Assembly: GCA_947626075.1 (NCBI GenBank)
Contig: CANQQW010000001.1
Coordinates: forward strand, 14,213 to 78,212
DNA: 64,000 nt
DNA from: an uncultured Clostridia bacterium
Lineage (GTDB): Bacteria > Bacillota > Clostridia > UBA1381
Direction of reading: 5' to 3'
Under the pieces are notes generated by a model, which ran no database searches, was not told the origin of the DNA, and was given only the letters and a program-made list of their open reading frames with translations. Below, piece after piece: positions 3,001 to 31,352 of this stretch; within the stretch, counting starts at the first letter, position 1, and every line of letters begins with the position of its first letter. Made by a program: the position numbers and the translations under genes.

Positions 3001-6000
3001 AGCCAAAACCGGTACTGACGTATAAGTTTTTTGAGAACGGTCCCGGTCAGCTTGTCGAAGGTGAGGACTATACTCTTTCATGGGAGTCGAACGTGAACGC
3101 GGGTACGGGAAAGGTAATTGTTCGCGGCATAAACCGGTTTTCAGGTGAGATGTCAATACCGTTCACTATCAATAAGCGCAGTATAACCGAAGCGAGAATT
3201 ACACAGATACCCGCACAAGACTATACGGGAAATCCCATTACGCCTAACCCGACCTTGACGTATAACGGACATAAGCTGTTACAGTCCGCTGATTATACGC
3301 TAAGCTATTCGGATAATACTACGGATATAGGTACGGTAACCATTACCATAACAGGTATCGGTAACTTCGAGGGCACAGTTAATACAACGTTTGAGATTGA
3401 ACCGTCAGGAATTGAAGGGGTAGCCGTACATCATATACCCGACCAAGAATATAACGGCAAGCCGCAAGAACCTGATTTGACAATCACGTACAAAGGACGA
3501 ACGCTCGAGGAAGATACCGACTATACGTTAGACTACTCGAATAACGTAGATGTGGGTACTGCCACTGTTACCATTACAGGCGTGGAAAACTCGGGCTTTA
3601 CAGGTACAACAGAAGCCAATTTTAATATTATCGCGTGTCCAATATCCCGTGCGGCGATAGAAACACCCGATAATGTGACGTATACAGGTTCTGAGATCAC
3701 ACCCGGTCTGACTATTACATACAACGGCATGACGCTTGAACAGAATGTGGACTACACATTGGGCTACAGCGAGAACGTAAATGCGGGTATGGCAGAGATT
3801 ATTGTGACCGGTATAGGTAACTATTCAGGTACACGCAGCACTAACTTCGGTATAGATCCGTGTGAGATTTCCAAAGCTGATATTTCGGAAATAGACGAGC
3901 AGATGTATACGGGTGAGGTAATCACACCCAAGCCGACGCTCTCGTTCAACGGTAAGACACTGGTACAGGGCGTAGACTATACGCTGTACTATTCCGAAAA
4001 CAGGGATATTGGTACGGCTACTATTACAATAACAGGTAACGGCAACTTTACCGGTGTGACAACTACCACGTTCCAAATCATAGCATCCGATATTAAGGAT
4101 GTCATAGTGCTTAACATACCCGACCAGCTATATACCGGTAAGCAGATAACGCCTGATCCGACAATTATGTTTAACGGGCGACTGCTGGCTAAAGACTACG
4201 ACTATACACTAAGTTATGAAAATAACGTGGACGTAGGCACGGCTACGGTAACGATAACAAGTGTAGAGGAATCGGACTTTGTGGGTACGGCTACCAAGAC
4301 GTTTGAAATTGTTCCAAGACCTATCGCTGACGCGGCTATTACTCTGCCGAAGCATGAGACATATACGGGCGATCCGATAACACCACACCTAACAATTGAG
4401 TTTGAGGGTATGAGCCTTGTAGTAGGCAAGGACTACAATATATCATATGATAGTAACACCAATGTCGGAATGGCAGAAATAGTAATTGAGGGTATCAATA
4501 ATTTTGAAGGTTCACGGCATACGGTGTTTACAATTGTACCCCGCAACATCTTTGAAGCGGACATCACGGAAATACCGCCGCAGCACTATACGGGCGATGC
4601 TCTGACACCTGAACCGACTATCTCGTATCGCGGTAAGCCACTTACAAAGAACGTCGATTATGTATTGATGTACGCGAACAACGTAAGGGAAGGTACGGCT
4701 ACGGTAACGGTAAGGGGTGTTGGTAACTTTACAGACATAGCAACAACGACATTCAAAATCGAGTCGTCAGGTGTTGACGGCGTAGTAGTTTTAGGTATAC
4801 CCGACCAAGTATATACGGGTAAGCCCATAACTCCTGAACCGACTATCTCGTATCGCGGTAAAACACTCACGAAGGACGAAGATTACACCTTGGACTATGA
4901 GAATAACATCAATGTAGGACGTGCAACGGTTAAAATCACGGGCATAGCAGGTTCGGGATTTGACGGAACGACAACTGTTTCGTTCAATATAACGCACAAA
5001 CCGATTGCTGACGCGGCAATTAAGCTGCCTGAGCACCATGTCTATACCGGTGAACCGATACAACCGGAAATGGAAGTCACGTTAGAGGATTTGACGCTTG
5101 TCAAGGACAAAGACTATACGGTAGACTATGATGATAATACGCGTGTTGGTACAGCCGAAGTGGTTATAACGGGCGTAGGCAACTTTGCCGGCACAAGACA
5201 TACGGTATTTGCTATCATGCCTTGCGATATAGAGGATACGGATATAGACGATATACCCGCACAGGACTATACAGGCTATCATATAACGCCTGATCCGCAT
5301 ATATCATATAACGGTCAGGATTTGATATTCGGACGCGATTATACGTTAAAGTATGAAGATAACCTTGAGGTAGGTACTGCTACCGTTACTATCGCCGGAA
5401 ACGGTAATTTTACGGGCACAGTGGACAAGACGTTTGAAATATCGGAAATGGATATTGATTATGTCGATATTGCGCCTATACCGTCACAAACATATACCGG
5501 TTATGAGATAACGCCCGAGATGTCAATCACGTTCCACGGCAGAACGCTTGTTAAGGGCTTGGACTATACGGTTGAGTTTGAGAATAACAAGGACGTAGGT
5601 ACGGCTACGGTAATAATTACAGGTATTCCCGAAGCGGGCGTTAAAGGAACAAAGGAAACAGAGTTTGACATAACTCCCGCACAAATAAGCTCTGCTAAGG
5701 TATCATCGGTACCGAAGCATGAAACATACACGGGCGATCCGTATACACCTGAACCGACGCTTGTGTTCAACGGTATAGAGCTTGTTAAAGATGTCGATTA
5801 CACGTTGGACTACTCGAATAACGTAGACGCGGGTGAGGTTGTAATCACCATTACCGGTATGGGTAATTTTGAGGGTACAATGACCGAAACGTTTGTTATA
5901 GAAGCTGTGCTTATAACCAACGTTGAAGTAACCGCTATCCCGGCAGAAACATATTCGGGTGAGGAAATAACCCCTGAACCGACAGTGACGTATGAAGGTA

Positions 6001-8165
6001 ATGAGCTTACAATGGGCGAAGATTATGTGCTGGAATACGATAATAACCTTAACGCGGGTACAGCTATGGTAATCATACGCGGTATAGGTAACTATACGGG
6101 CACAACCAACAGGGTATTCACGATCAATTCGCAGCTTATAAGCAACACGGATATGTCCATTGAGGACGTAGAATTTACAGGCTATCCTCAGGACGGACAT
6201 CTTGCACTGACATACGGTGACAATACACTTGTTAAAGACAAGGACTATACGGCATCGTTTATCAATAATATCAATGTAGGTACTGCTACCGCAATCATTA
6301 CCGGTGTAGGCAATTTTGCGGGTAATCTTACGTCCGGATTTGATATATTACAACGACTTATTACGTTGAAAAACATCAAAGCTGAACCTATACCCACACA
6401 GGCATATACCGGCTATGAAGTAACACCTAAACCTGTCATATGGTACGGTGATTTCCTGCTTGAGGAAGATAAGGACTATACGCTTGAATACCGTAATAAC
6501 GTTAATGTAGGCACAGCGAGTGTAGATGTGACGTTTATGGGTAACTATACGGGCAAAATAACCTTGGATTTTGAGATACAAAAGTATCGCGTAACGGCAT
6601 CGAATAATGGCGGCTACATTGACGGGGCAAAGACAGAGTATGTAGACGACAACAATATCAATGTTACGCTTCCTGACGGTGTGGTATTCGACTACGACGA
6701 CAGAGTACATGTGACCGTAACAGATATGGACGGCAACCCTGTAGAGGGCGTTACGGTCCATGTAACAGACAGTAACGGTACGGTAGAGCAAGACACTACA
6801 GATGAGCAAGGTGACGCTTCTGTGCCGCCGCAAAAGACCGATACGACCGATAAAAACGGTCAAGGTGAAATTATAATAACAGACGACGACGGCAACGTTA
6901 CGGGCAGGTATACGGTCACTGTGAGCGATGAGAGTGGTCCTGTAAAAGACGCATTTTTGTCATTAACAAACGACGGCAATTTAAGTGTTACAATGCCTGA
7001 CGGCAAGGTCGTAGGCGCGTCTAACAGAGTAACGGTCAGTGTTAAAGACGAGAATGGCGAGGGTGTAGCTGATTTGACAGTAACAGTATCGGATACAGCT
7101 GAAACACCGTCAACGTTCAGTGGTAAGACATCGAACACCGGTTCTGTGACCTTACCGCCTAAATCGTCAGTTTCAAGCGGCGGCGGTGGCGGTGGTTCAT
7201 CAGGTGGTGGCGGCGGTGGTGGTTCGTCAAGTGGCGTACTAACCCCGTCTGCAACAGTAACCGATGATACCAACCAAGAGTTGACCGTTGAAGAAGAGAA
7301 GTCAAAAACCGGCGATTATACCATTACTCTGCCGGAGTCTGAAAACCTTGAAGACGGCAAAGAATATACCGTTACATTGCCGGGCAAGAAAGAGGGCGTA
7401 AAGGTTACTCTAAAGGATAAGTTCGGTAATGAAGTATCAGGTATTACCGATAAAGGTGGAAAGGTTGTTCTTAAGTATAAGAAGACGGCAATAGAACCGA
7501 CAGAGCCGACAGACACGGTAGAGCACAGCGCATACATTTACGGCGATGATTACGGCTTATTCAGACCTGATAATATGATGACACGAGCTGAAGCGGCTAC
7601 TATATTTGCACAAAATATATCGCAGCGTCTTGACGAGGATATTTCCGATAACAATTCACAGTTTGCTGATGTTTTGCCGGGTACATGGTATAATAAATAT
7701 ATCGCATATCTCGAAGGTTATGACATCATAACAGGCTATGAAGACGGTTTATTCTATCCTGAAACACCTATTACGCGTACCGAGTTTGTAACCATGTGCA
7801 AGAAGTATTACGAGCTTTATGATACCGTTGAGGAATTTAACGAGAATATATTCCCCGACGTCCCCGATACACATTGGGGTGTTGCATACATAAAAGACTC
7901 CGTTGGTATGGGCTGGATAAGCGGTTATGAAGACGGCACGTTTAAGCCTGATAACTTTATCACGCGTTCAGAGGTAGTGGCTATCATTAATAGAGTACTC
8001 GGACGTTCCACTGACAGGGAGTATATAAACAGCAACATTGAAGCAGTGGCACAGTTCACTGATGTACCGACTACACATTGGGCATACTACGACATACTCG
8101 AAGCTTGTAATTCACATACCTGCTCCAATGAGTCAACCGGTGAGGTTTGGGTAAAGGTTCAATAA
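3..8165 (+). CDS. Giant surface protein (5'-partial): BspA-type LRR region, 17 Ig-like repeats, further beta-sandwich repeats, Gly/Ser linker, three C-terminal SLH domains
   Basis: Frame is open from base 3 (VPNTDES...) to the ATG at 114, so the true start is upstream. LRR_5-like IGxxAFxxCxxL repeats, YTG..ITP..DYT..Y.NN..VGTATVTITG.GNF repeats, and SLH motifs (FRPDNMMTRAEAA, FYPETPITRTEF, FKPDNFITRSEV). Confidence 0.9.
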   Translation, partial: VPNTDESDGVISSDAPISFFSANDFFDISLLSTGVNSMMIDKDGDGEDDSTVFYGDCTGDGSSYVEGAHYQDGDKVEWWLDSDGTLTFKGTGCIKDYGKQKNARPPWYGGIQIPYDVKNIIIGEGIRYIGSDAFSGLDKIETVTYPETSLIDIGSSAFENSSIREFNIPDTVKYIQMYAFRDCTKLLYEDYDVPEENRKTLHLPNSLVSLSSGAFQGSYCIHKVEFPEGLTKIPDSCFKGCSALGKQYDEEAYVFPDTITTIGSSAFANTGFKNVIIPANTTLGNAIFMGSALKKVEFENGVTEVPNSMFKECDALENVKMVDSIESIGSEAFRACTKLPYVEIPQNVTEIGNDAFSYCYNLEELNIPAKVELIKGNPAVFSFRLKNINVDPENDYYESNNGVLFTKGLEDLIYYPIWGKEETEYTIPNGTKNILQSAFAKNTLTGSEKYETPPETHLTTVHFPETVKTIGKEAFYGLESLTTVTLNNGLESIGEKAFSYTGLESITIPETVNKMLSGTFLNCKCLTTAELSSNLTTISQDTFSGCVHLGEVIVPEGITYIGSYAFASCEELSSIALPSTLETIDVCGFMNCKNLKTIELPKSLKEISVKGLPFGTLETITVNEENTTYRVDNDVALINNDTKTLVGYLTQNKQTIYTVPEDVEVIGKYAFYNASYLQSINLSNITAIERSAFEGASKIHFTLPEGLKSIGAWAFYNIGVVSNLKIPASVISIGQKAFAQSSSGKGVSGVLTFESQEEPNDSRKLVFEINQFSGTDESISKAFDKSSLRSIDFGNRIIVFNGYEFSNSPLLMSVDMSKASVATIAVSTFDGCPYLNDVQFSPSIQNICNRAFAGSTQLAQITIPWSIRGISTNAFLGTRLQKIVIRRFKLPYIVENGDSNTEGAEVIYANAYYPQTAYNYTGAMPKPTVTLDGESLIENVDYTIEYGELDEENQMEATIRGVPGRVGGYAVATFKLIPDSITRATYDPLPDVTYTGDPFKPKPVLTYKFFENGPGQLVEGEDYTLSWESNVNAGTGKVIVRGINRFSGEMSIPFTINKRSITEARITQIPAQDYTGNPITPNPTLTYNGHKLLQSADYTLSYSDNTTDIGTVTITITGIGNFEGTVNTTFEIEPSGIEGVAVHHIPDQEYNGKPQEPDLTITYKGRTLEEDTDYTLDYSNNVDVGTATVTITGVENSGFTGTTEANFNIIACPISRAAIETPDNVTYTGSEITPGLTITYNGMTLEQNVDYTLGYSENVNAGMAEIIVTGIGNYSGTRSTNFGIDPCEISKADISEIDEQMYTGEVITPKPTLSFNGKTLVQGVDYTLYYSENRDIGTATITITGNGNFTGVTTTTFQIIASDIKDVIVLNIPDQLYTGKQITPDPTIMFNGRLLAKDYDYTLSYENNVDVGTATVTITSVEESDFVGTATKTFEIVPRPIADAAITLPKHETYTGDPITPHLTIEFEGMSLVVGKDYNISYDSNTNVGMAEIVIEGINNFEGSRHTVFTIVPRNIFEADITEIPPQHYTGDALTPEPTISYRGKPLTKNVDYVLMYANNVREGTATVTVRGVGNFTDIATTTFKIESSGVDGVVVLGIPDQVYTGKPITPEPTISYRGKTLTKDEDYTLDYENNINVGRATVKITGIAGSGFDGTTTVSFNITHKPIADAAIKLPEHHVYTGEPIQPEMEVTLEDLTLVKDKDYTVDYDDNTRVGTAEVVITGVGNFAGTRHTVFAIMPCDIEDTDIDDIPAQDYTGYHITPDPHISYNGQDLIFGRDYTLKYEDNLEVGTATVTIAGNGNFTGTVDKTFEISEMDIDYVDIAPIPSQTYTGYEITPEMSITFHGRTLVKGLDYTVEFENNKDVGTATVIITGIPEAGVKGTKETEFDITPAQISSAKVSSVPKHETYTGDPYTPEPTLVFNGIELVKDVDYTLDYSNNVDAGEVVITITGMGNFEGTMTETFVIEAVLITNVEVTAIPAETYSGEEITPEPTVTYEGNELTMGEDYVLEYDNNLNAGTAMVIIRGIGNYTGTTNRVFTINSQLISNTDMSIEDVEFTGYPQDGHLALTYGDNTLVKDKDYTASFINNINVGTATAIITGVGNFAGNLTSGFDILQRLITLKNIKAEPIPTQAYTGYEVTPKPVIWYGDFLLEEDKDYTLEYRNNVNVGTASVDVTFMGNYTGKITLDFEIQKYRVTASNNGGYIDGAKTEYVDDNNINVTLPDGVVFDYDDRVHVTVTDMDGNPVEGVTVHVTDSNGTVEQDTTDEQGDASVPPQKTDTTDKNGQGEIIITDDDGNVTGRYTVTVSDESGPVKDAFLSLTNDGNLSVTMPDGKVVGASNRVTVSVKDENGEGVADLTVTVSDTAETPSTFSGKTSNTGSVTLPPKSSVSSGGGGGGSSGGGGGGGSSSGVLTPSATVTDDTNQELTVEEEKSKTGDYTITLPESENLEDGKEYTVTLPGKKEGVKVTLKDKFGNEVSGITDKGGKVVLKYKKTAIEPTEPTDTVEHSAYIYGDDYGLFRPDNMMTRAEAATIFAQNISQRLDEDISDNNSQFADVLPGTWYNKYIAYLEGYDIITGYEDGLFYPETPITRTEFVTMCKKYYELYDTVEEFNENIFPDVPDTHWGVAYIKDSVGMGWISGYEDGTFKPDNFITRSEVVAIINRVLGRSTDREYINSNIEAVAQFTDVPTTHWAYYDILEACNSHTCSNESTGEVWVKVQ
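2750..6590 (+). repeat. 17 tandem ~80-aa Ig-like coding repeats
   Basis: Counted 17 Y[TNS]G/FTG-initiated units in the translation; boundaries approximate. Confidence 0.85.
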
Positions 8166-12798: not shown

Positions 12799-13671
12799 AT
12801 GATGGCAAAGAATGAGGGTGTGGACATATATGTTATCCCCGAGAACTTTATCGAAGGTGGAAGAATATTAAATGGTATGTTCAAAACACGGAATTTCGTT
12901 GAAGCTGTCGCGTTAGCATTAGCTGTAGGTATTCCGCTGTGGTTCATACCGTACCCTTCGGTTGCCATGAAAATGAGTGTCCTAATATCCGTTGTATTGC
13001 CTGTTTTCATAATGGGTGTCATCGGCATAAACGATAGCTCGTTGTTGGAGTTTCTGCAACAGTTCTTAAAGTGGCGAAAGAACAAGCGGATAATGATATA
13101 CAACACAAACACGCGCTCACGAGATGTAAGACCGGTTGAGGTTGTGCTATCACAGGAGCTGCCTAAAGATAAAATCGTAAAAACTATTGATACATGGCGT
13201 GAAAACAAGCGTCATAAGTCAACCGGCGAGACATTTATCGAGGGCAGAGACTTTGTATTTGACGAAGAAGTCAACACGTCATATACCGCCGCTGAAAACA
13301 AGCTCTTGTCACAGGACGATACGGACGAAACAGCAGAGAAGAAACCTAAGAAAGAGCGCAAACATAAGGGTAAAAAGGCAAAGGACGGCGAAAACACCGA
13401 AACCGCTGAAGAAACCGTTAGCACATCCGATACGGAAGAAGTTGATAATACCGAAGCAGAAACAGCGCAGGAAGCCGATACAGAGCCTACAGAAACCGAA
13501 AACGAGCCGCATGAGGTAAGTGATAGGGCAGAAGAAAACAGTGCGCAAGAAGGTAAAAGACCCGCCAAAAATGATGTACAAAAGCAAGAGGATGAGTTTG
13601 ACAAGTTTATCGACGTGGAAGCTGTGACGGACGAAACCGATGATGTGTTCGATATTATAACAGGGGAGTGA
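12799..13671 (+). CDS. prgI: PrgI-family (VirB3-like) T4SS membrane protein with long acidic tail
   Basis: YVIPENFIEGGRILNG..TRNFVEA motif, two TMs, EFL..FLKWRK; located immediately before VirB4. Confidence 0.7.
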   Translation: MMAKNEGVDIYVIPENFIEGGRILNGMFKTRNFVEAVALALAVGIPLWFIPYPSVAMKMSVLISVVLPVFIMGVIGINDSSLLEFLQQFLKWRKNKRIMIYNTNTRSRDVRPVEVVLSQELPKDKIVKTIDTWRENKRHKSTGETFIEGRDFVFDEEVNTSYTAAENKLLSQDDTDETAEKKPKKERKHKGKKAKDGENTETAEETVSTSDTEEVDNTEAETAQEADTEPTETENEPHEVSDRAEENSAQEGKRPAKNDVQKQEDEFDKFIDVEAVTDETDDVFDIITGE

Positions 13672-21106: not shown

Positions 21107-22285
21107 ATGGCAAAACGAGCCAACGGTGAAGGAACGATACGCAAACGAGTATCGGGGAAGAAAGGTAACATTAGGTGGGAAGGGAGGTATTACGATCCAT
21201 ACCTAAAGAAGCAAAAGAGTGTGTATGGGGACACTAAAGAGGAAGTCCGAAAGATGTTGTCACAGATTGCCGTAAAGAAAGACACGGGCAATTTTGTATC
21301 GCAAAACAACATAACGCTCGACGAATGGCGAGAAACGTACTTAAGCCTATACGTTGAAGGAGTATTAAAACCGCAAACGATCAGTGCAAAACAGAAAATG
21401 TATACGCTGCACATACAGCCAATGATTGGCAGTAAATGTGTACAGAACATAACAGATATGGATGTAAAAACACTGTTAAACCGGCTACAGGCGTTGCATT
21501 ATGCTACCAGTACCATATCCAACATACGCAACGAGCTATCTACCATGTTAAAAAGGGCAGTAGAGCATAAGCTCATAAGCAGCAATCCGGTAAGCAATAT
21601 CAAAGCGGTCAACGGTACAGACAGCAAAGAACGACGAGAACTGACAGACTATGAGCTAAAATGGTTTTTTCGAGGTTTAGAGGAGAGAAGACCACAAGAC
21701 CTGCTATTTTTCCTGATAATGGCAACCACAGGCGCAAGATGCGGTGAAGTTATAGGGTTACAGTGGTGCAACTTTTCAGACGACTATTCGAGTATGAGCA
21801 TAAACAAAACATATACTCAATACCAAACCGAGCAAGGAGTTATACGAGGGTTTAGCAAACCAAAGACGAAAACATCCGTTCGTACCATACCTATCATACC
21901 GAAAGTCAGTGAAGAATTACGGAAAAAATATGAGGAAAACAAAGAGATTATGTCTTCATTGAATCAAACAATATCCGATAATGACTTTATTTTTATGGAT
22001 TTTAGACGTGATAGGGTTAATAATCACAGTTATTATCGCAACGTCATAAAAGGTGTTTTAGATTATCTAAAGAGGTGTTACAACATAGAAATAGAGATGT
22101 TTTCAACACACTATTTTAGACATACGTTCACAAGCCGAGCATTGCGTAGTAATGTATCACTGGAAACATTAAAGCGATTGTTGGGACACAAGAGCTATAA
22201 TATGATCGAACAGGTTTATGCCCATGTATCTCAAAGCGACAAAGTTAATGCGGTAATGGCTATGTTCAGCGAAGCCAACAATTAG
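21107..22285 (+). CDS. int: Tyrosine integrase (Tn916-like N-terminal arm-binding domain)
   Basis: MAKRANGEGTIRKR..WEGRY N-terminus; catalytic TGARCGE, PKTKTS, HYFRH, LGH and VYAH. Confidence 0.95.
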   Translation: MAKRANGEGTIRKRVSGKKGNIRWEGRYYDPYLKKQKSVYGDTKEEVRKMLSQIAVKKDTGNFVSQNNITLDEWRETYLSLYVEGVLKPQTISAKQKMYTLHIQPMIGSKCVQNITDMDVKTLLNRLQALHYATSTISNIRNELSTMLKRAVEHKLISSNPVSNIKAVNGTDSKERRELTDYELKWFFRGLEERRPQDLLFFLIMATTGARCGEVIGLQWCNFSDDYSSMSINKTYTQYQTEQGVIRGFSKPKTKTSVRTIPIIPKVSEELRKKYEENKEIMSSLNQTISDNDFIFMDFRRDRVNNHSYYRNVIKGVLDYLKRCYNIEIEMFSTHYFRHTFTSRALRSNVSLETLKRLLGHKSYNMIEQVYAHVSQSDKVNAVMAMFSEANN

Positions 22286-22504: not shown

Positions 22505-22532
22505 TAAAATGCTGAAAAAAGGAGTGATTGCC

Positions 22533-23570
22533 ATGGATTTGAACGACAGAAAAAGAAAAATTCTTCAGGCAATCATTGACGAATACATCGGTACGGCGGA
22601 ACCTGTCGGCTCGCGCGCAATTTCAAAAAAAGAAAATCTCGGACTTTCAAGCGCCACCATACGCAACGAAATGGCTGACCTGGAGGAAATGGGCTATCTC
22701 ATTCAGCCTCACACCTCGGCGGGCAGAATACCGTCGGACGCGGGCTACCGCTTCTACGTAAACTCGCTTATGAGTAATTATAAAATAGGTATGGAAGCCG
22801 TGTCGCAGCTTCGGAATCTTCTTGAAACGCGGGTAAGCCAACTTGAAAAGCTGATAAAGTACGCGGCGGCTATCGCTTCCAGTCTTACCGATTACGCGAC
22901 CGTGGCGGCGGCGCCGAAAGAAAACAACTCGGAAATAAGAAAAATCGACCTTGTACCTGTATCGAACCATACCGTTATGCTGATAGTCGTGACGCGCAAC
23001 GTGCGCAGCCGCGCCATAAATACGGATATTGACGGCGAAAGCTGCGAAAAGCTGTCAAAGCTGTTAAACGCAAGACTTTCGGGACTTAAAGCGGACGATA
23101 TAGATTTTGCTAAAATACAGGAAATCCAAAGAGAAACGGAAAATAAGCTTTCAATAAATCCAAAGGTGCTTATAGATATACTTCATTTTCTATACGACAC
23201 CGTAACCGCCGACGCGGAAACGGAGATATATGTGAATAACGCGAAATCAATACTCCGTTATCCCGAATATAAAAATGTTGAGAAAGCGGAAAAGATACTG
23301 TCCTTTTTGGAGGATAAGGAGAATCTGAAAAAGCTTGTCGAGACTGACGGCAAGGACGGCATAGAAGCCAAGATAGGAAAGGAAAATGATTTTGAAATAT
23401 TGCAGGACTGCTCGCTTGTGAGCGTAAATTATTCGCTGGGCGATAAGGCGTCGGGTAAGCTCGCCGTCATAGGACCCAAACGCATGAATTACGCGAAAGT
23501 TTTCGCAAGTCTCGACCTTATTTCAAATGAAATAGATAAAATACTCGGTTACTATATGAATGACGGCTGA
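22533..23570 (+). CDS. hrcA: Heat-inducible transcription repressor HrcA
   Basis: LNDRKRKILQAIIDEYI..EPVGSR, SSATIRNEMADLE, HTSAGRIPS; CIRCE upstream; start from RBS AAGGAG. Confidence 0.97.
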   Translation: MDLNDRKRKILQAIIDEYIGTAEPVGSRAISKKENLGLSSATIRNEMADLEEMGYLIQPHTSAGRIPSDAGYRFYVNSLMSNYKIGMEAVSQLRNLLETRVSQLEKLIKYAAAIASSLTDYATVAAAPKENNSEIRKIDLVPVSNHTVMLIVVTRNVRSRAINTDIDGESCEKLSKLLNARLSGLKADDIDFAKIQEIQRETENKLSINPKVLIDILHFLYDTVTADAETEIYVNNAKSILRYPEYKNVEKAEKILSFLEDKENLKKLVETDGKDGIEAKIGKENDFEILQDCSLVSVNYSLGDKASGKLAVIGPKRMNYAKVFASLDLISNEIDKILGYYMNDG

Positions 23571-23586
23571 GGAAAGGGGTAATCTG

Positions 23587-24120
23587 ATGGAAATTAATGA
23601 AGAAAAAAATACCGCGGAAGAGGAAACCGCCGCGGAGGAAACGCAGAACCGGGAAGAGGCGGAGGAGAGGTCAAACGAGGAAATCCTTGAGGAAAAGCTT
23701 AAGGAACAGACTGATAAATACGTGCGTCTTTACGCCGAGTTTGACAACTTTCAAAAACGCACGCAGCGCGAAAAGGATATGCGCTACGGCGACGCGGTGA
23801 TAGACGCGGCTGCGGCGATACTTCCGATAGGCGATAACTTAGAGCGCGCGCTTAAAATCGAGGTTAAATCCGAGGACGCGGTAAAGCTTAAAGAGGGCGT
23901 AGAGATGGTTTTAAAGCAGTTTGCCGACACGCTTGACAAGCTCGGCGTAAAGCCGATAAAAGCCGAGGGCGAGCAGTTTGACCCGAATCTCCATAACGCC
24001 GTGATGCATATCGAGGACGATACGATAGACGATAACACCGTTGTTGAAGAGCTTATGAAAGGCTACATATACAAGGACAACCGCGTTGTTCGTCACAGTA
24101 TGGTAAAGGTAGCAAATTAA
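23587..24120 (+). CDS. grpE: Nucleotide exchange factor GrpE
   Basis: RLYAEFDNFQKR, FDPNLHNAV, RHSMVKVA; synteny. Confidence 0.97.
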   Translation: MEINEEKNTAEEETAAEETQNREEAEERSNEEILEEKLKEQTDKYVRLYAEFDNFQKRTQREKDMRYGDAVIDAAAAILPIGDNLERALKIEVKSEDAVKLKEGVEMVLKQFADTLDKLGVKPIKAEGEQFDPNLHNAVMHIEDDTIDDNTVVEELMKGYIYKDNRVVRHSMVKVAN

Positions 24121-24152
24121 ATTTTGATTTTTATTAAGGAGGACAATATATC

Positions 24153-25985
24153 ATGGGAAAAATAATAGGAATTGACCTGGGAACAACAAACAGCTGCGTG
24201 GCAGTTATGGAGGGCGGAAACCCGAACGTTATCACTAACAGTGAGGGCGCGAGAACCACTCCGTCCGTTGTCGCTTTCCAAAAGGACGGCGAGAGAATAG
24301 TCGGACAGGTGGCGAAGCGTCAGGCTGTCACCAATGCGGACAGAACTATAATGTCCATAAAGAGAAAAATGGGTACTACGGAAAAGGTTACGATAGACGG
24401 TAAGGCGTACACGCCGCAGGAAATTTCGGCAATGATTTTGTCGAAGCTAAAGCAGGACGCGGAAAGCTACCTCGGAGAAACGGTAACGCAGGCGGTCATT
24501 ACTGTTCCCGCTTACTTTAACGACTCACAGCGTCAGGCGACGAAAGACGCGGGTAAGATTGCGGGTCTTGAGGTAATGAGAATAGTAAACGAGCCTACGG
24601 CTGCGGCGCTTGCTTACGGCGTGGGCGAGAAAGATCAGAAGATAATGGTATACGACCTCGGCGGCGGTACGTTCGATGTGTCTATACTTGACATTTCGGA
24701 CGGCGTGTTCGAGGTGCTTTCGACAAACGGCGACACGCATTTGGGCGGCGACGATTTTGACCAAAGAATTATCGATTTCCTTGTATCGGAATTTAAGAAG
24801 AGCGACGGCGTAGACCTTTCGGGCGACAAAATGGCTATGCAGCGTCTTAAGGAAGCGGCGGAAAAGTCGAAGATAGAACTTTCGACAACTACTACCTCAA
24901 ACATCAACCTGCCGTTTATAACAGCCGACGCGTCAGGCCCCAAGCATATGGACATCACGCTTACAAAGGCTAAGTTTGACGAGCTTACGGCTGACCTTGT
25001 TGACAGAACGTTGACGTGTATCCGTAACGCTATGAGAGACGCGTCGCTCAGCGCGTCTCAGATCGACGAAGTTCTTCTTGTCGGCGGCTCGTCGAGAATA
25101 CCGGCTGTACAGGAAGCCGTTAAAAAGGAAATGGGCAAAGAGCCGAACAAGGGAATTAACCCCGACGAGTGCGTTGCCGTGGGCGCCGCAAGACAGGCGG
25201 GCGTTCTTTCGGGCGATAACTCGCAGGATATACTTCTTCTTGACGTAACGCCGCTGTCTCTCGGTATCGAAACTATGGGCGGCGTGTTCACGAAACTTAT
25301 CGAAAGAAACACTACAATACCAACCTCAAAGTCGCAGATATTCTCAACGGCGGCGGACGGTCAAACGTCGGTTGAGGTTCACGTTCTCCAGGGCGAGAGA
25401 GAAATGGCTCAGTACAATAAGACGCTCGGACGCTTTAACCTTACCGGCATAGCTCCCGCGCCGCGCGGCGTGCCGCAGATTGAGGTAACGTTTGACATTG
25501 ACGCGAACGGTATCGTAAACGTAAGCGCAAAGGATTTGGGAACGGGCAACGAGCAGAAAATTACGATTACAGCTTCTTCAAACCTTTCGGACGAAGATAT
25601 AGATAAAGCGGTGAAAGAAGCCGAAAAGTATGCGGAGGAGGACAAGAAGCGCAAAGAGGAAGTTGAGATTAGAAACAACGCCGAATCGCTTGTATACCAG
25701 TGTGAGAAAGCCGTTAAGGACGCTGGCGACAAGATTGACGACGCGACAATGGTAGAGACCGAGGTAAACAAGGTTAAGGAAGCGCTTAAGGGTACGGACA
25801 GCGCGGCTATAAAGGCGGCGACAGACGAGCTTCAGGAAAAGTTTTACACCGTAGCGCAGCAGATGTACGCACAGGCTAACCCGCAGGGCGCGGACCCGAA
25901 CGCGGGCGCGGATTCAAACGCGGCGCCGGGCGGAGATAATGTTTACGAAGCTGACTATAAGGAAGTAGACAACGATAACAAATAA
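24153..25985 (+). CDS. dnaK: Chaperone DnaK
   Basis: [32 protein letters not shown]. Confidence 0.99.
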
Positions 25986-25994
25986 AACAGACGC

Positions 25995-26023
25995 GGGGCT
26001 GTCTTAACCGACAGCCCCTGTTT
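25995..26023 (+). terminator. Intrinsic terminator after dnaK
   Basis: GGGGCTGTC-N6-GACAGCCCC followed by TGTTT. Confidence 0.75.
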
Positions 26024-26030
26024 GCGGTAG

Positions 26031-26124
26031 ATTATGATTTAGCGATGTATTTGCGGTGTGGACGTAGGGGCGGTCATTGGCCGCCCGTTCCCGACGTCCC
26101 GCATTTACACCGTCAAATCATAAT
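26031..26124. repeat. REP-containing miniature element, copy 1
   Basis: Terminal IR ATTATGATTT/AAATCATAAT enclosing GTAGGGGCGGTCATTGGCCGCCCG; first ~58 bp identical to copy 2. Confidence 0.8.
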
Positions 26125-26146
26125 TTACATACATTCAAAATACCCC

Positions 26147-26175
26147 TTTACAAACCAAACCAAATTTAGTATAAT
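26147..26175 (+). promoter_or_regulatory. Putative sigma-A promoter for dnaJ
   Basis: TTTACA, 17 bp, TATAAT. Confidence 0.6.
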
Positions 26176-26190
26176 ACCCATATTAGGCAG

Positions 26191-27315
26191 GTGAAAAAAT
26201 TGGCGGACAAGAGAGATTACTACGAGGTCCTGGGTGTCCAAAAGGGCGCGTCGGACGATGAAATAAAGAAAGCGTTCCGCAAGCAGAGCAAACAGTACCA
26301 CCCCGACCTCCACCCGGGCGACAAGGAAGCCGAGGAAAAGTTTAAGGAGGTAAACGAAGCGTATCAGGTACTTTCCGACCCGGAGAAAAAAGCCAACTAC
26401 GACCGATTCGGTCACGCGGGCGTAGACCCGAACTTCGGCGCGGGCGGCGGCTTTAACGGCGCAGGATTCGACTTTGGCGATATATTTGATATGTTTGGCG
26501 GTTTTGGCGGCTTCGGCGGCGGACGCAGGAACGGACCGAAACGCGGAGCGGATATACGTCAGACTGTAGATGTAAGCTTCGAGGAAGCGGCATTCGGCTG
26601 TAAGAGAAAACTGAACATCATGACGCAGGAAAAATGCGAAAGCTGCGGCGGCACGGGCGCGAAAAGAGGTACTCCCATAACTACTTGCACAAACTGCCGA
26701 GGCACGGGACGCGTACAGACTCAGCAGCGCACCATTTTAGGTTATATGACTACGGAAACCGTATGTCCGCAATGCCGAGGCGAGGGTAAAATTATAAAAG
26801 AACCGTGCCGCGACTGCCGAGGAACGGGCAGCGTCAGAAAAAACAAAACGATAGAGGTTCAAATCCCCGCCGGAATTGACAACGGACAAACCATACAACT
26901 CTCCGGCAAAGGCGAAGCGGGAGCAAAGGGCGGACCGAACGGCGATTTGCTCATTACCGTAAGAGTCCGTCCGCACGAGGTATTTCGCCGTGAGGGAAAC
27001 AATGTACTTATTGATATGCCGATAACCTTTGTACAGGCGGCATTGGGCGCTACGGTCAAGGTACCGACGCTCGACGGACCCGTGGAACTGACCATTCCCG
27101 AGGGAACGCAAACCTCATCGCGTTTCCGCATGAAAGGGAAAGGTATTCCGTATCTAAAAAGCAAATCGCGAGGCGACCAGTATGTAACGGTAAACGTTGA
27201 AGTACCGAGGAACCTGACCGCGAAGCAGAAAGAAATTCTGCGCAATTTTGACGAGGATAATAATTATAAACAGAAGAAAAGCTTTTACGATAAAATGAAA
27301 GATTTTCTTAAATAA
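26191..27315 (+). CDS. dnaJ: Chaperone DnaJ
   Basis: J domain with HPD, G/F region, four CxxCxGxG motifs; the start may be the TTG at 26200. Confidence 0.98.
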
Positions 27316-27338
27316 ACAAAAAACGTGGGAGGAAAACA

Positions 27339-28637
27339 ATGACACCGAATATTTATAAACTGTCCGATATGACAAAGGACCGTTACGACTTTATAATGAA
27401 GCGCGCCGAGCTTGACATAACGGAGCAAATGAAAGTTGCGCGCGAGGTTTCGGACGACGTAAGGGATCGCGGCGACGCTGCCGTTCTCGAATACACCGCG
27501 AAGTTTGACCATGTTGAGCTTACAGCCGACCAAATGAAAGTAAAGCCCGAGGAAATCGAAGCGGGCTACAACCGTCTTGACAAGGAAACACGCGAGGCTA
27601 TAGAGTACGCGTACAAGAACATTTACGACTTCCACGAGAAACAGCTTCCCGAGGAAATGTGGTTCACAATGGTTGACGACGGTCTTATGGTCGGCGAGAA
27701 AACAACGCCGATAGTCGACGTGTGCCTGTACGTGCCGCACGGCAAAGGCTCATTCCCGTCGGTACTGTGTATGCTCGGTATTCCGGCGGTCGTTGCGAAA
27801 GTACCGAAAATCGTCGTTGTAACGCCCCCGAACGAAAAGGGCGAGGTTGACGACGCAATCTTAGCGGCTGCGAAAATTATCGGTATCACCGAAATATACA
27901 AGGTCGGCGGCATACAGGCGATAGCGGCTGTCGCGTACGGCACGGAAACGATCCCGAAGTGCCACAAGGTCATAGGACCCGGCAACAGCTACGCAACCGC
28001 GGCAAAACGCGTACTCGCCAACCATATCGACGCGGGACTTCCCGCGGGACCGAGCGAGATAATCGTTTTAGCCGACGAAAAAGCCGACCCCGAAAAGGTC
28101 GCGCTCGACTGGATGATAGAAGCCGAGCACGGACCCGACAGCGCGGCGCTTCTCGTGACGCACTCAAAGGAATTAGTTGACGCGGTTATCCCAATCGTGA
28201 ACCGCCAGCTTGAAAAAATATCGCCGAAGCGCAAGGAGTTTATCGAAACGAACCTCACCACCTACGGCGGCGTCATTTTGACAAACTCGCTCGACGAATC
28301 TATCGCGTTCGTAAACGACTACGCGCCCGAGCATATGGAGGTAATGACGGAAAAACCGTTTGACACGCTCCCGAAAATCAAAAACGCGGGCGAGATACTT
28401 TTGGGCGACTACACGCCGGTAACGCTCTGCAACTTCGTTTTGGGACCCAACGCAATACTTCCGACGGGCGGCTTTGCGAAAACGTACTCGTCGGTAAGCG
28501 TGCAGGATTTCTTAAAGCGCTCGTCCGTCGGCTACGCGTCGAAGGACGGATTTGAAAAGGTAAGAGACTACGCGTACAGATTTGCGAAAGTCGAGGGATT
28601 TGATACGCACGGCTTAGCCGTAAAAGAAAGGAAATAA
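27339..28637 (+). CDS. Histidinol dehydrogenase homologue with non-canonical Zn/substrate motifs
   Basis: HisD fold motifs (GPGN, AGPSE, APEH) but IEAEHG, LCNF and PNAILPT replace SQAEHD, GDY and PNHVLPT. Confidence 0.85.
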   Translation: MTPNIYKLSDMTKDRYDFIMKRAELDITEQMKVAREVSDDVRDRGDAAVLEYTAKFDHVELTADQMKVKPEEIEAGYNRLDKETREAIEYAYKNIYDFHEKQLPEEMWFTMVDDGLMVGEKTTPIVDVCLYVPHGKGSFPSVLCMLGIPAVVAKVPKIVVVTPPNEKGEVDDAILAAAKIIGITEIYKVGGIQAIAAVAYGTETIPKCHKVIGPGNSYATAAKRVLANHIDAGLPAGPSEIIVLADEKADPEKVALDWMIEAEHGPDSAALLVTHSKELVDAVIPIVNRQLEKISPKRKEFIETNLTTYGGVILTNSLDESIAFVNDYAPEHMEVMTEKPFDTLPKIKNAGEILLGDYTPVTLCNFVLGPNAILPTGGFAKTYSSVSVQDFLKRSSVGYASKDGFEKVRDYAYRFAKVEGFDTHGLAVKERK

Positions 28638-28639
28638 TT

Positions 28640-29257
28640 ATGGAAAAGGTACAGGTTACGCGCAAAACCACGGAATCGGAAATGAAAGTCGTGTTCGACT
28701 TTTCACCGATCAAGCCCGATTACAGAAAGAATATAAAGACTCCGCTTCCGTTTCTAAGTCACATGATTGAGCATATCGCGTGGCGCGGCGGATTTAATAT
28801 CGAAACCGACATTAAGCTTGACGAGTTCACTTTGACGCACGTAATATGCGAGGATCTCGGTATGGCTATGGGCAAGGCGGCGCGCGAGTACGTGCAGAAA
28901 ACCGACGGCGCGGCGGGCTTTGGCGACGCTGTGGGCATTATCGACGAGGCGAAAGCGGAATGTGCCGTAAGCTTTGAGGACAGAGTGTACATAGACGTCG
29001 ACTACCACGGCAACGCGCCGGCGGCGAAAGTCGAGGGTATGGACAGCGAGGATTTGGAAACGTTTCTCGAAGGCTTTGTTCAGGGCGCGATGTGTACGAT
29101 GCACATAGATTTGCAAAAAGGTCATAACGGTCATCACATCTGGGAAGCGATTTACAGAAGCGTCGGCTCGGCGCTGAGCCGCGCATTCACGGTAAGCGAG
29201 GCGCGCAAGGGCATGACCAGCGGCGTTGCCGGTAAAATTGAGTGGACAGTGGAATAA
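28640..29257 (+). CDS. Imidazoleglycerol-phosphate dehydratase (HisB) homologue, divergent
   Basis: RKTTE, FLSHMI, DEA and NGHHIWEA retained; first HH motif is THVICED; C-terminal STKG is absent. Confidence 0.8.
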   Translation: MEKVQVTRKTTESEMKVVFDFSPIKPDYRKNIKTPLPFLSHMIEHIAWRGGFNIETDIKLDEFTLTHVICEDLGMAMGKAAREYVQKTDGAAGFGDAVGIIDEAKAECAVSFEDRVYIDVDYHGNAPAAKVEGMDSEDLETFLEGFVQGAMCTMHIDLQKGHNGHHIWEAIYRSVGSALSRAFTVSEARKGMTSGVAGKIEWTVE

Positions 29258-29393
29258 ATTATGATTTAGCGATGTATTTGCGGTGTGGACGTAGGGGCGG
29301 TCATTGGCCGCCCGTCCCCGACAACCCGATGTCAACAGGATTTTGTAGGGGCGACCCTTGCGGTCGCCCGCATTTACGCACATAAATCATAAT
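29258..29393. repeat. REP-containing miniature element, copy 2
   Basis: Same terminal IR; two GTAG palindromes (29291-29314 and GTAGGGGCGACCCTTGCGGTCGCCCG at 29345-29370). Confidence 0.8.
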
Positions 29394-29453
29394 CTATAAC
29401 CGTACCAAACCAAAGGGACACATCGTGTCCCTGTTTTAACAGGAGGCAAAACA

Positions 29454-30005
29454 ATGGAAAAGAAAATAACCACGCCGTTCACTAAGGATAAAATCCGCGC
29501 TTTAAAAGCGGGCGACAGCGTGCTTATAACGGGAGTTATATACACGGCTCGCGACGCGGCGCACGAGCGCATGACGGCTAACTTCAAAAAAGACGGCGCA
29601 TTCCCGATTGACCTTACCGACGGCGCGATTTATTACGCCGGTCCGTGTCCCGCCAAACCGGGCGAGGTTATAGGCTCATGCGGACCCACCACCGCGGGCA
29701 GAATGGACGCTTACACGCCGCTTTTGCTCGACTGCGGTTTGGGATGCATGATAGGCAAAGGCGCGCGGAATAAAGACGTTGTGGACGCGATGAAGCGCAA
29801 CACCGCCGTGTACCTCGGCGCGATAGGCGGCGCGGGCGCACTTATAGCAAAGTCCATAAAGAAAGCGGAGGTTGTGGCGTATGACGACCTCGGCACGGAA
29901 GCGATACGCCGCCTTGAAGTGGAGGACTTTCCGGCGGTTGTGCTTATCGACTGCGAGGGTAACGACCTGTACGAAATAGGGCAGGCAAAATATAGGGAAA
30001 TTTAA
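29454..30005 (+). CDS. Fe-S hydro-lyase (class I fumarase/tartrate dehydratase) beta subunit
   Basis: LKAGDSVLITGVIYTARDAAH, GPTTAGRMD, MIGKG, DCEGNDLY. Confidence 0.92.
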   Translation: MEKKITTPFTKDKIRALKAGDSVLITGVIYTARDAAHERMTANFKKDGAFPIDLTDGAIYYAGPCPAKPGEVIGSCGPTTAGRMDAYTPLLLDCGLGCMIGKGARNKDVVDAMKRNTAVYLGAIGGAGALIAKSIKKAEVVAYDDLGTEAIRRLEVEDFPAVVLIDCEGNDLYEIGQAKYREI

Positions 30006-30008
30006 AAA

Positions 30009-31352
30009 ATGAGTACACTTGAAAATTCATTATCAATGGAAATCTCGTTTGGAAGGCTTATCAAATTCACTATCCCCACAATCATAATGATGATTTTCAC
30101 TTCGATGTATACAATAGTGGACGGCATTTTTGTGTCGCGGCTTGTGAATACTGACGCGCTTTCGGCGGTAAACATCGTGTTCCCGATTTTGGGACTTGCG
30201 ACGGGCATAGGCACGATGTTCGGTACGGGCATGTCCGCTGTTGTTTCGATTAAGAACGGGGCGGGCAGAAATCTTGAAGCGAACCGAGACTTTACATATA
30301 TTTACATAGTTTTAGCCGCGCTTGCCATAGCGTCAATGGCGTTGGTTTTTATATTCATAAAACCGATAATTATTTTTCTCGGTGCGAATGAGGCAATTTA
30401 CGATTACTGCTACGATTACGCGCGCGTATCGGCGTTTTTCATACCGTTTTCGATAATGCAGATGTATGTGCATGGCGCTATTTTAGCCGACGGCAAGCCG
30501 AAGCTGATGCTTGCGCTCTCACTCACCGGCGGCATAGCGAATATCGTGCTCGACTACGTGTTCATAAAGCCGTGCGGCATGGGAATATCGGGCGCCGCTT
30601 TGGCTACGGGAATAGGGTATATGATTCAAACGACAGCCGCGACCGTTTACTTTGCGCGCAATAAAAACGGACTTGTGCATTTTGTAAATCCTCGCCGCGA
30701 CAGACGCGCGCTCGTATCGACCGTTACAAACGGTTCGTCGGAAATGGTTAATAACCTCGCCATGAGCATTACCACGCTTTTATTCAATCTCGCGATGATG
30801 CGCTTTGCGGGGCAGGACGGAGTAGCCGCGATTACGATAGTACTCTATATTGATTTTTTCCTTGCCGCTGTAAGCATAGGATATTCAATGGGAGCCGCGC
30901 CCGTGATAAGCTATAATTACGGCGCGGAAGAAAAGGAGAAGCTTGGTAAAATTTTCCGAATAAGCCTGATTTTTTTAGGCATCTTCTCCATAGCCGTTAC
31001 GGCGCTTACCGTTATATTCAGAGGACCGCTTGTGCTGACGTTTGCAAAGTCGGGTACGGGGGTATTTGAAATCGCAAAGCGCGGAATGTTGCTATTCGCG
31101 TCGGGGTATCTGTTCAAAGGTTATAATATATTTGCCTCGTCGCTTTTTACTGCGTACTCAAACGGCAAAATTTCGGCGGTTATTTCATTTATCAGAACGC
31201 TCGGACTAACATCGCTGTTTATAATAGGCTTCGCGGCGCTTTTCGGCGTGGACGGAATATGGTTTGCTATACCGGCAGCGGAATTTCTGACGCTCATTTT
31301 GGCGGCGTATTTCGTTTGGAAATACAAAGACAAATATTATCTGCTGCGCTAA
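30009..31352 (+). CDS. MATE-family efflux transporter
   Basis: SMYTIVDGIFV, DGKPK, ANIVLDYVFI..MGISGAALAT, GVDGIWFA. Confidence 0.92.
   Translation: MSTLENSLSMEISFGRLIKFTIPTIIMMIFTSMYTIVDGIFVSRLVNTDALSAVNIVFPILGLATGIGTMFGTGMSAVVSIKNGAGRNLEANRDFTYIYIVLAALAIASMALVFIFIKPIIIFLGANEAIYDYCYDYARVSAFFIPFSIMQMYVHGAILADGKPKLMLALSLTGGIANIVLDYVFIKPCGMGISGAALATGIGYMIQTTAATVYFARNKNGLVHFVNPRRDRRALVSTVTNGSSEMVNNLAMSITTLLFNLAMMRFAGQDGVAAITIVLYIDFFLAAVSIGYSMGAAPVISYNYGAEEKEKLGKIFRISLIFLGIFSIAVTALTVIFRGPLVLTFAKSGTGVFEIAKRGMLLFASGYLFKGYNIFASSLFTAYSNGKISAVISFIRTLGLTSLFIIGFAALFGVDGIWFAIPAAEFLTLILAAYFVWKYKDKYYLLR

Follow-up and report, generated by a model that had tools for sequence, protein, structure and literature searches.

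The window, that is, the whole stretch of 64,000 nucleotides analysed here, contains two adjacent genes, HisD* and IGPD*, which are probably the organism's hisD-hisB pair. Their products would serve histidine synthesis as its dehydratase and its last dehydrogenase, in variant forms that evolved as a unit. The initial annotation had placed both enzymes in a pathway acting on a different, possibly non-phosphorylated substrate. Our data spoke against this view: relatives of the pair were found inside ordinary histidine operons, which makes a new pathway unlikely, the class-specific residues did not depend on the partner enzyme, and basic residues were present at the anion site. The interpretation of a new substrate was largely replaced by that of variant histidine enzymes. 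No measured activity for any member of either variant class was found in the literature.

The gene order on the forward strand (positions 22509-31352) was hrcA, grpE, dnaK, dnaJ, HisD*, IGPD*, a 196-nt spacer, Fumerase_C, and a MATE exporter. The coordinates are given in Table 1. No terminator-like site was present between dnaJ and HisD*. The absence of other his genes in the vicinity, mentioned in the initial annotation, was confirmed across the 64-kb window.

Table 1. Features of the window around the HisD*-IGPD* pair.
Feature	Position	Strand	Remarks
hrcA-grpE-dnaK-dnaJ operon	22509..27315	+	directly upstream of HisD*; dnaJ stop 24 nt before HisD*
HisD*, histidinol dehydrogenase of E259/N360/A367 (ENA) type	27339..28637	+	432 aa; stop 2 nt before IGPD* start
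IGPD*, variant-class imidazoleglycerol-phosphate dehydratase	28640..29257	+	205 aa, ATG start
Spacer after IGPD*	29258..29453		site of the HAD gene in most relatives
Fe-S hydro-lyase beta-type subunit, Fumerase_C only	29454..30005	+	183 aa; PF05683; NF005310 291 bits vs. 238

No HAD remnant was detected by tblastn of the HAD protein against the window; the gene was lost without trace here and in the nearest relatives. The spacer contained two near-identical G+C-rich hairpins, GGGGCGGTCATTGGCCGCCC and GGGGCGACCCTTGCGGTCGCCC, as well as a terminator-like hairpin at 29414-29432, and looks like dispersed hairpin-repeat elements at a site of gene loss. A Pfam scan of ten other ORFs of the window revealed no fumarase alpha subunit. 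The lone Fumerase_C gene was syntenic with HisD*-IGPD*-HAD, with no alpha-subunit gene nearby, also at L085:11712-12263 and 55 other loci, and is a syntenic neighbour of the HisD*-IGPD* module in Clostridia. The part of the window preceding hrcA was of a different character. It included a 2720-aa ORF running off the 5' end (3-8165), an ORF with a weak PrgI-family match below the cut-off (12799-13671) and, just upstream of hrcA, a gene for a nucleoid-associated NA37 protein and a tyrosine-recombinase-like gene (21107-22285). The G+C content of positions 3-22285 was 0.36-0.45 vs. 0.51-0.54. This region is probably an integrated conjugative element.

IGPD* matched the entire PF00475 IGPD profile (profile positions 1-144 of 144, residues 34-179) with 124 bits at a cut-off of 27. 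It fell below all 13 NCBIfam HisB equivalog cut-offs, with NF002114 as the best one (116.7 bits vs. 189), and its orthologue P0083 bears the NCBI name 'hypothetical protein'. The AF2 model of IGPD* was of high confidence (pLDDT 95, pTM 0.92). Foldseek aligned it with solved IGPDs at TM 0.84-0.90, the best match being 4MU4 (TM 0.84/0.86), and 29 IGPD chains were retrieved with E ≤ 1e-11. The predicted structure had the IGPD fold. An antisense ORF of 209 aa (28754-29383, minus strand) overlaps and outlasts IGPD* and can mislead gene calling based on the longest ORF. It was rejected as a gene, since it arises merely as a by-product of the high G+C content of the IGPD* coding frame.

Active-site residues of IGPD* were mapped by aligning it with IGPDs of solved structure, among them A. 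thaliana IGPD2. Glu21, His47, His73, Glu77, Arg121, His145, His169, His170, and Glu173 were retained; His74 was replaced by Val, Arg99 by Gly, Lys177 by Arg, Gln51 by His, and His55 by Arg. The first metal motif read T-H-V-I-C-E-D and the second one, N-G-H-H-I-W-E, was intact, so that seven of the eight Mn ligands were in place. The C-terminal S-T-K-G loop was represented by S-G-V-A-G-K. The alignment upheld the earlier reading of the first motif as LTHVICED with Val instead of the second His, the changes of RYG to GFG and of STKG to SGVAG, and the intact second motif NxHHxxEA. His74 corresponds to His142 of the Medicago enzyme, a ligand of Mn2 (PMC10978614). The statement that the phosphate-binding residues are missing held only in part: Arg99 was indeed replaced by Gly, but Arg121 was kept within EDRV, the segment described previously as a change of SGRP to EDRV. 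Likewise, in the change of FKA to YRS, Lys177 was replaced, but by Arg, with the positive charge kept. As Arg121 persists and the changes at Lys177 and His55 keep or add a positive charge, the anion site of IGPD* appears to be re-arranged and not lost. Among the basic residues, Arg49 was invariant in the 88-member Clostridia clade, and Arg189 occurred in 110 of 113 members of the class.

The class to which IGPD* belongs was drawn from a search of 1.84 billion representatives and an alignment of its matches, in which IGPDs fell into two clean classes, variant and canonical. The variant class is characterised by H-[V/T/L] in place of H-H, Gly or Ser in place of Arg99, Arg in place of Lys177, the motif D-P-H-H-x-W-E, and a C-terminal G-V-K-G. 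His74 was absent in 113/113 members, and His145 was present in 66/113. At the position of Glu113, which is Ser in canonical enzymes, 110 of the 113 members had Glu and two had Asp. The position of Glu132 (canonical Gly) was acidic in all members, and Trp168 was invariant. All three of these class-specific residues were found in IGPD*. When species genomes were scanned for the class motif, 148 matches were confirmed. The best 80 of the 148 loci were examined and belonged to CPR bacteria, Chloroflexota, Actinomycetota, KSB3, Nitrospinota, Omnitrophota, DPANN, Thermoproteota, Thermoplasmatota, and others. Judging by these sequences, the variant class is deep and includes Clostridia, Chloroflexota, Actinomycetota, CPR bacteria, and many archaea. 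In the IGPD tree, variant and canonical enzymes were split by a fully supported long branch. The clade of the window (99% support) was located inside a set with 97% support, beside fusion proteins of Thermoproteota, and every row of this set with a typed partner HisD had the ENA type.

Genomic context of the variant IGPD (IGPDv) linked the class to histidine operons. Peregrinibacteria had the operon hisG-hisC-hisD-IGPDv-hisH-hisA-hisF-hisIE (L092, L094-L099, L161) with the variant enzyme in the hisB slot, and the same slot was occupied by it in complete operons of L102 and L103 and of archaeal loci L154, L155, L163, and L166. In Thermodesulfobacteriota, the order was hisD-HAD-IGPDv-hisH-hisA-hisF-hisIE. 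A contig of Peptococcales (Bacillota; L228) carried hisG-hisA-hisF-hisIE-HisD*-IGPDv, with the pair closing the operon. In Thermoproteota (L146, L171), a 650-aa HisD*::IGPDv fusion headed the operon hisG-hisH-hisA-hisF-hisIE; in all, the two enzymes were fused into one protein in P0126, P0127, L146, L171, L129, and L136. Archaeal clusters hisG-HisD*-IGPDv-HAD(-hisC) were found in L105, L108, L110, L114, and L121. Proteobacterial loci L175 and L198 contained clusters of the type [HAD::IGPD-like x2]-hisC-HisD*. Proteins of this kind, about 640 aa in length (P0160, P0161, P0165, P0166, P0168, P0169, P0180; L175:5022-6893; L198:9416-11380), combined a beta-phosphoglucomutase-like HAD with two IGPD-like domains in tandem. 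The first domain kept H47 and HHxxE and the second one H-V-x-x-E-D and Arg, which gives complementary half-sites.

HisD* scored 471.3 bits with TIGR00069 (cut-off 243.8) and 505 bits with PF00815, and its structure matches were E 1e-85 for HisD vs. E 1e-51 for HpsN. His262, Glu326, His327, Glu414, and His419 were retained, while Gln259 was replaced by Glu, Asp360 by Asn, and His367 by Ala. [quoted passage not shown] The exchange of Gln259 for Glu and of Asp360 for Asn leaves one carboxylate and one amide on the zinc and therefore looks like compensation. Among 70 HisD proteins encoded beside a variant IGPD, 18 had R259/D360/H367, 52 had E259/N360/A(S)367, and none had the canonical Gln259. The two types formed two clean groups in the HisD tree, with the ENA type as a single clade. 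In HisD of the R259 type from full operons (L092:8611-9978 and 17 other loci), Arg stood in for the zinc ligand Gln259 and was followed by Cys ('A-R-C-E-H'). The class-specific IGPD residues were identical beside D360/H367-type and ENA-type HisD, and the two partner contexts interleaved in the IGPD tree. Operons with D360/H367-type HisD and variant IGPD included hisC and an otherwise ordinary gene set.

HisD of the ENA type is common: a pattern scan for it returned at least 600 matches, and the sampled bearers included Ktedonobacter racemifer, cable bacteria, Magnetococcales, Anaerolineae, and many Clostridia. The gene was located within his operons in L146, L152, L171, L207, and L228, and adjoined hisG in L105, L108, L110, L114, L121, L176, L196, L203, L234, and L244. 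In Terrilactibacillus it was situated beside ABC-transporter genes. Most ENA loci had no hisC, though hisC-like genes were present in the ENA clusters L108, L114, L175, and L198. Two further proteins accompanied HisD of this type. The HAD phosphatase following the pair is similar to an uncharacterised S. aureus protein (PDB 1QYI), and its family, from archaea to Clostridia, has all four catalytic motifs of HAD enzymes. It recurred beside ENA-type HisD in 65 of 87 loci of the Clostridia clade, as well as at several loci of archaea, Nitrospinota, and Ktedonobacteraceae. An APH-like protein of the kinase fold (about 420 aa) was encoded directly beside ENA-type HisD in 13 loci of Chloroflexota and an alphaproteobacterium (L207:2450-4828; L176:9299-10552; L234:9187-10542, and 10 more). 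One his operon of Ktedonobacteraceae contained a fusion of the 1QYI-like HAD and the APH-like kinase in the hisB slot, with no IGPD at the locus.

The conservation of the pair was studied in 87 related loci, mostly from gut Clostridia MAGs (Monoglobus, Ornithomonoglobus, Hominilimicola) and also from Petroclostridium sp. X23. HisD* adjoined IGPD* in all 87 of them. This neighbourhood analysis, recommended in the initial annotation, supported its view that the enzymes diverged together, as did the fusions in other lineages; beyond these 87 loci, relatives of the pair were located inside his operons, as in L228. Within 8-10 kb of the pair, no other his genes were detected in the window or in the 87 related Clostridia loci. 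An Rfam scan of nine distant loci detected only tRNAs and no T-box before the module; in seven of the more distant loci of the Clostridia clade, neither a T-box nor another known histidine-sensing leader preceded it. Upstream of the pair, the dnaK operon was found in Monoglobus-like genomes and a polar amino-acid ABC transporter or other genes elsewhere. A HAD phosphatase gene of about 345 aa followed IGPD* in 65/87 loci, and the Fumerase_C gene was present downstream in 56/87, including loci with a differing upstream context. Most of the 87 loci shared a four-gene block of HisD*, IGPD*, HAD, and the lone Fe-S hydro-lyase beta subunit, in three upstream contexts. One more locus (L192, contig CAVGTH010000036.1), from a bin labelled Roseburia faecis, encoded HisD* with 82% identity to that of the window, a possibly truncated IGPD*, and a HAD gene. 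Either this contig was assigned to the wrong bin, or the genome has a canonical as well as a variant copy.

IGPD* has more than 1000 close homologues. Exact-protein look-ups of the Petroclostridium and L079 orthologues gave no match. Across 88 orthologues, H41, H45, R49, G93, R115, R173, and 'GVAG' were invariant, and position 68 was either V or L. The dN/dS values of HisD* and IGPD* vs. close relatives were 0.04-0.056, the same as for DnaK in those loci, and the pair is under strong purifying selection. The median identity across the related loci (L001-L087) was 91.6% for HisD* vs. 87.1% for DnaK. In HisD*, 67% of positions were at least 95% conserved across the clade, which is unusual for a biosynthetic enzyme. 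The dN/dS check named in the initial annotation gave no pseudogene-like values. It is extremely unlikely that IGPD* is a decaying or inactive copy, a pseudoenzyme, as could be supposed from the loss of one metal ligand and one phosphate-binding Arg. The pseudogene reading was rejected on the dN/dS values; the numerous close homologues, the invariance of the variant residues themselves, and the intact predicted fold also contradict it. Since the variant residues are fixed in 88 orthologues at such a low dN/dS, the changes in IGPD* represent neither chance nor decay. Fixed residues, dN/dS, and the confident AlphaFold model together indicate that IGPD* is a working protein.

Several lines of evidence argue for variant histidine enzymes: the variant IGPD in the hisB slot, the pair inside the L228 operon, the fusions heading his operons, the archaeal and proteobacterial clusters mirroring the E. 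coli order hisD-hisC-hisB(NB), the placement in the IGPD tree, the low dN/dS, the IGPD fold, and the score of HisD* well above the TIGR00069 cut-off. Most likely, IGPD* would convert imidazoleglycerol phosphate to imidazole-acetol phosphate, and HisD* would oxidise histidinol to histidine. The other his genes of the pathway would lie elsewhere in the genome. The binuclear metal site of IGPD* would be rebuilt, with Glu113 and Glu132 as likely replacement ligands, that is, with carboxylates in place of histidine at the metals and possibly with a changed metal preference. Glu113 is located two residues before Arg115 on a strand and so should point the same way, toward the substrate. The anion pocket would be composed of Arg49, Arg115, Arg173, and Arg189 in place of His55, Arg99, Arg121, and Lys177. 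HisD* has retained the Glu-His pair required for catalysis and the two zinc ligands that are His; the other two ligands are swapped, the ligand make-up being unchanged. As the class residues do not vary with the type of HisD beside them, the most economical reading is that a rebuilt site carries out ordinary dehydration of IGP.

Certain observations count against the histidine reading. These are the absence of Gln259 in all 70 HisD partners, a coupling of the two enzymes tighter than two non-consecutive steps need, the association of ENA-type HisD with the APH-like kinase where IGPD is absent, the missing highly conserved metal ligand, the lack of any other his gene within 8-10 kb, and the lack of a histidine-sensing leader in the scanned relatives. 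In a rival explanation, histidine is still made but the end of the pathway is re-ordered, with HisD* acting on a 2-oxo or 2-hydroxy intermediate. For example, IGP would be dehydrated, imidazole-acetol phosphate dephosphorylated by the HAD enzyme, the hydroxy-ketone oxidised by HisD* to imidazole-pyruvate, and a transaminase would act last; alternatively, imidazole-glycerol would be oxidised to the acid ahead of dehydration. The changes in HisD* coincide exactly with the zinc ligands other than His, those at 259 and 360, and the amino group of the substrate also binds this zinc (PMC11382572). With Asn in place of Asp, a hydrogen-bond donor replaces an acceptor, as would suit a carbonyl. The single ENA clade, the recurrence beside it of the HAD with all four motifs, the 13 loci with the kinase, and the scarcity of hisC in ENA loci point in the same direction. 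On the other hand, the reciprocal swap conserves the ligand make-up of the zinc, as expected for compensation rather than new specificity, and HpsN handles a 2-hydroxy substrate with canonical Gln/Asp ligands (PMC11382572). In addition, four ENA clusters do have hisC-like genes, and the same variant IGPD site is found beside D360/H367-type HisD in operons containing hisC. We regard a re-ordered end as rather unlikely but retain it, because the non-His zinc ligands are changed and ENA-type HisD travels with the HAD, or with the kinase without IGPD. It is similarly doubtful that variant IGPD, ENA-type HisD, and 1QYI-like HAD constitute an alternative histidine end-module with different chemistry. 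In such a module, dephosphorylation and oxidation may precede transamination, so that HisD* acts on the 2-oxo/2-hydroxy intermediate, or the dehydratase may have a carboxylate-rich metal site using another metal. Where IGPD is lacking, the APH-like kinase fused or adjacent to HAD and HisD* would carry out the dehydration at the cost of ATP.

A neofunctionalised set of paralogues acting on a non-histidine, possibly non-phosphorylated substrate, with canonical hisB and hisD elsewhere in the genome, is improbable. In L228, the nearest Bacillota relative of known genomic context, the pair forms part of a his operon. Operon-embedded members surround the clade in the IGPD tree as well as in the HisD tree, and its class residues are unchanged from theirs. 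This explanation would account for the isolation of the pair from his genes in all 87 Clostridia loci, for the four-gene block preserved in three upstream contexts, for the conservation of HisD* exceeding that of DnaK, and for the ABC-transporter genes beside ENA-type HisD in Terrilactibacillus. The module in the bin labelled Roseburia faecis would agree with it as well, as Roseburia was reported to have a hisG-Z-D-Bd-EI operon (PMC7478625); however, the name belongs to a MAG bin and could result from mis-binning.

In the study of Medicago HISN5, which covered 12,710 IGPD sequences, the eight metal ligands were the most conserved positions in all kingdoms (PMC10978614). In GapMind 2026, histidinol-phosphate phosphatase (hisN) was the most frequent of the gaps still left, with 20% of prototrophs lacking this step, and variant forms of IGPD or HisD were not mentioned (PMC13759103). 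The HAD phosphatase usually following the pair offers a concrete candidate for this step. No description of either variant class, or of an IGPD/HisD paralogue, was found in the searchable literature. The variant IGPD and HisD forms are apparently widespread and undescribed.

IGPD is a herbicide and antibiotic target. A class devoid of His74 and Arg99, distributed in many phyla and present in histidine operons, would demonstrate that an alternative construction of the site is possible, with consequences for the selectivity of inhibitors and for the mechanism of the reaction. As the class fails the NCBI models used for naming HisB, automated pipelines may score gut Clostridia, for instance relatives of Monoglobus, as histidine auxotrophs.

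IGPD* is similar to canonical IGPD (HisB/HISN5; A. thaliana IGPD2 4MU4, M. truncatula 8QAW, M. tuberculosis 4GQU), a Mn-dependent 24-mer, in the fold, the Pfam family, and the operon slot of its relatives. It differs in having only 23-28% identity, in the substitutions of His74, Arg99, Lys177, and His55, in the class-specific Glu113, Glu132, and Trp168, in the C-terminal loop (G-V-(K/A)-G in the class vs. S-T-K-G), and in failing the NCBIfam HisB equivalog cut-offs. The bifunctional HisB of E. coli is a HAD-type histidinol-phosphatase fused to IGPD, in the arrangement hisD-hisC-hisB. The HAD::IGPD-like fusions of L175 and L198 beside hisC and HisD*, as well as the HAD gene following IGPD* in most Clostridia loci, resemble this arrangement. 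However, the HADs of the relatives come from other subfamilies, resembling either 1QYI, with a large cap, or beta-phosphoglucomutase. The IGPD portion of the fusions consists of two half-degenerate domains in tandem, and the window is without HAD. HisD* shares Glu326, His327, His262, His419', and Glu414 with HisD of E. coli (1KAE/1K75), Brucella (4G07), and Medicago (5VLD), and its relatives are located in his operons; it is distinguished by the reciprocal swap of the axial Gln259 to Glu and the equatorial Asp360 to Asn, by the change of His367 to Ala, and by forming a clade of its own. HpsN (sulfopropanediol 3-dehydrogenase, 8V35) is a member of the HisD family that moved to another substrate, and hence the family can be re-purposed. 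In HpsN, however, the zinc ligands are still Gln and Asp, and a G-R-Y-A/S-H motif of its own is present (PMC11382572), whereas HisD* has Glu/Asn at these ligand positions.
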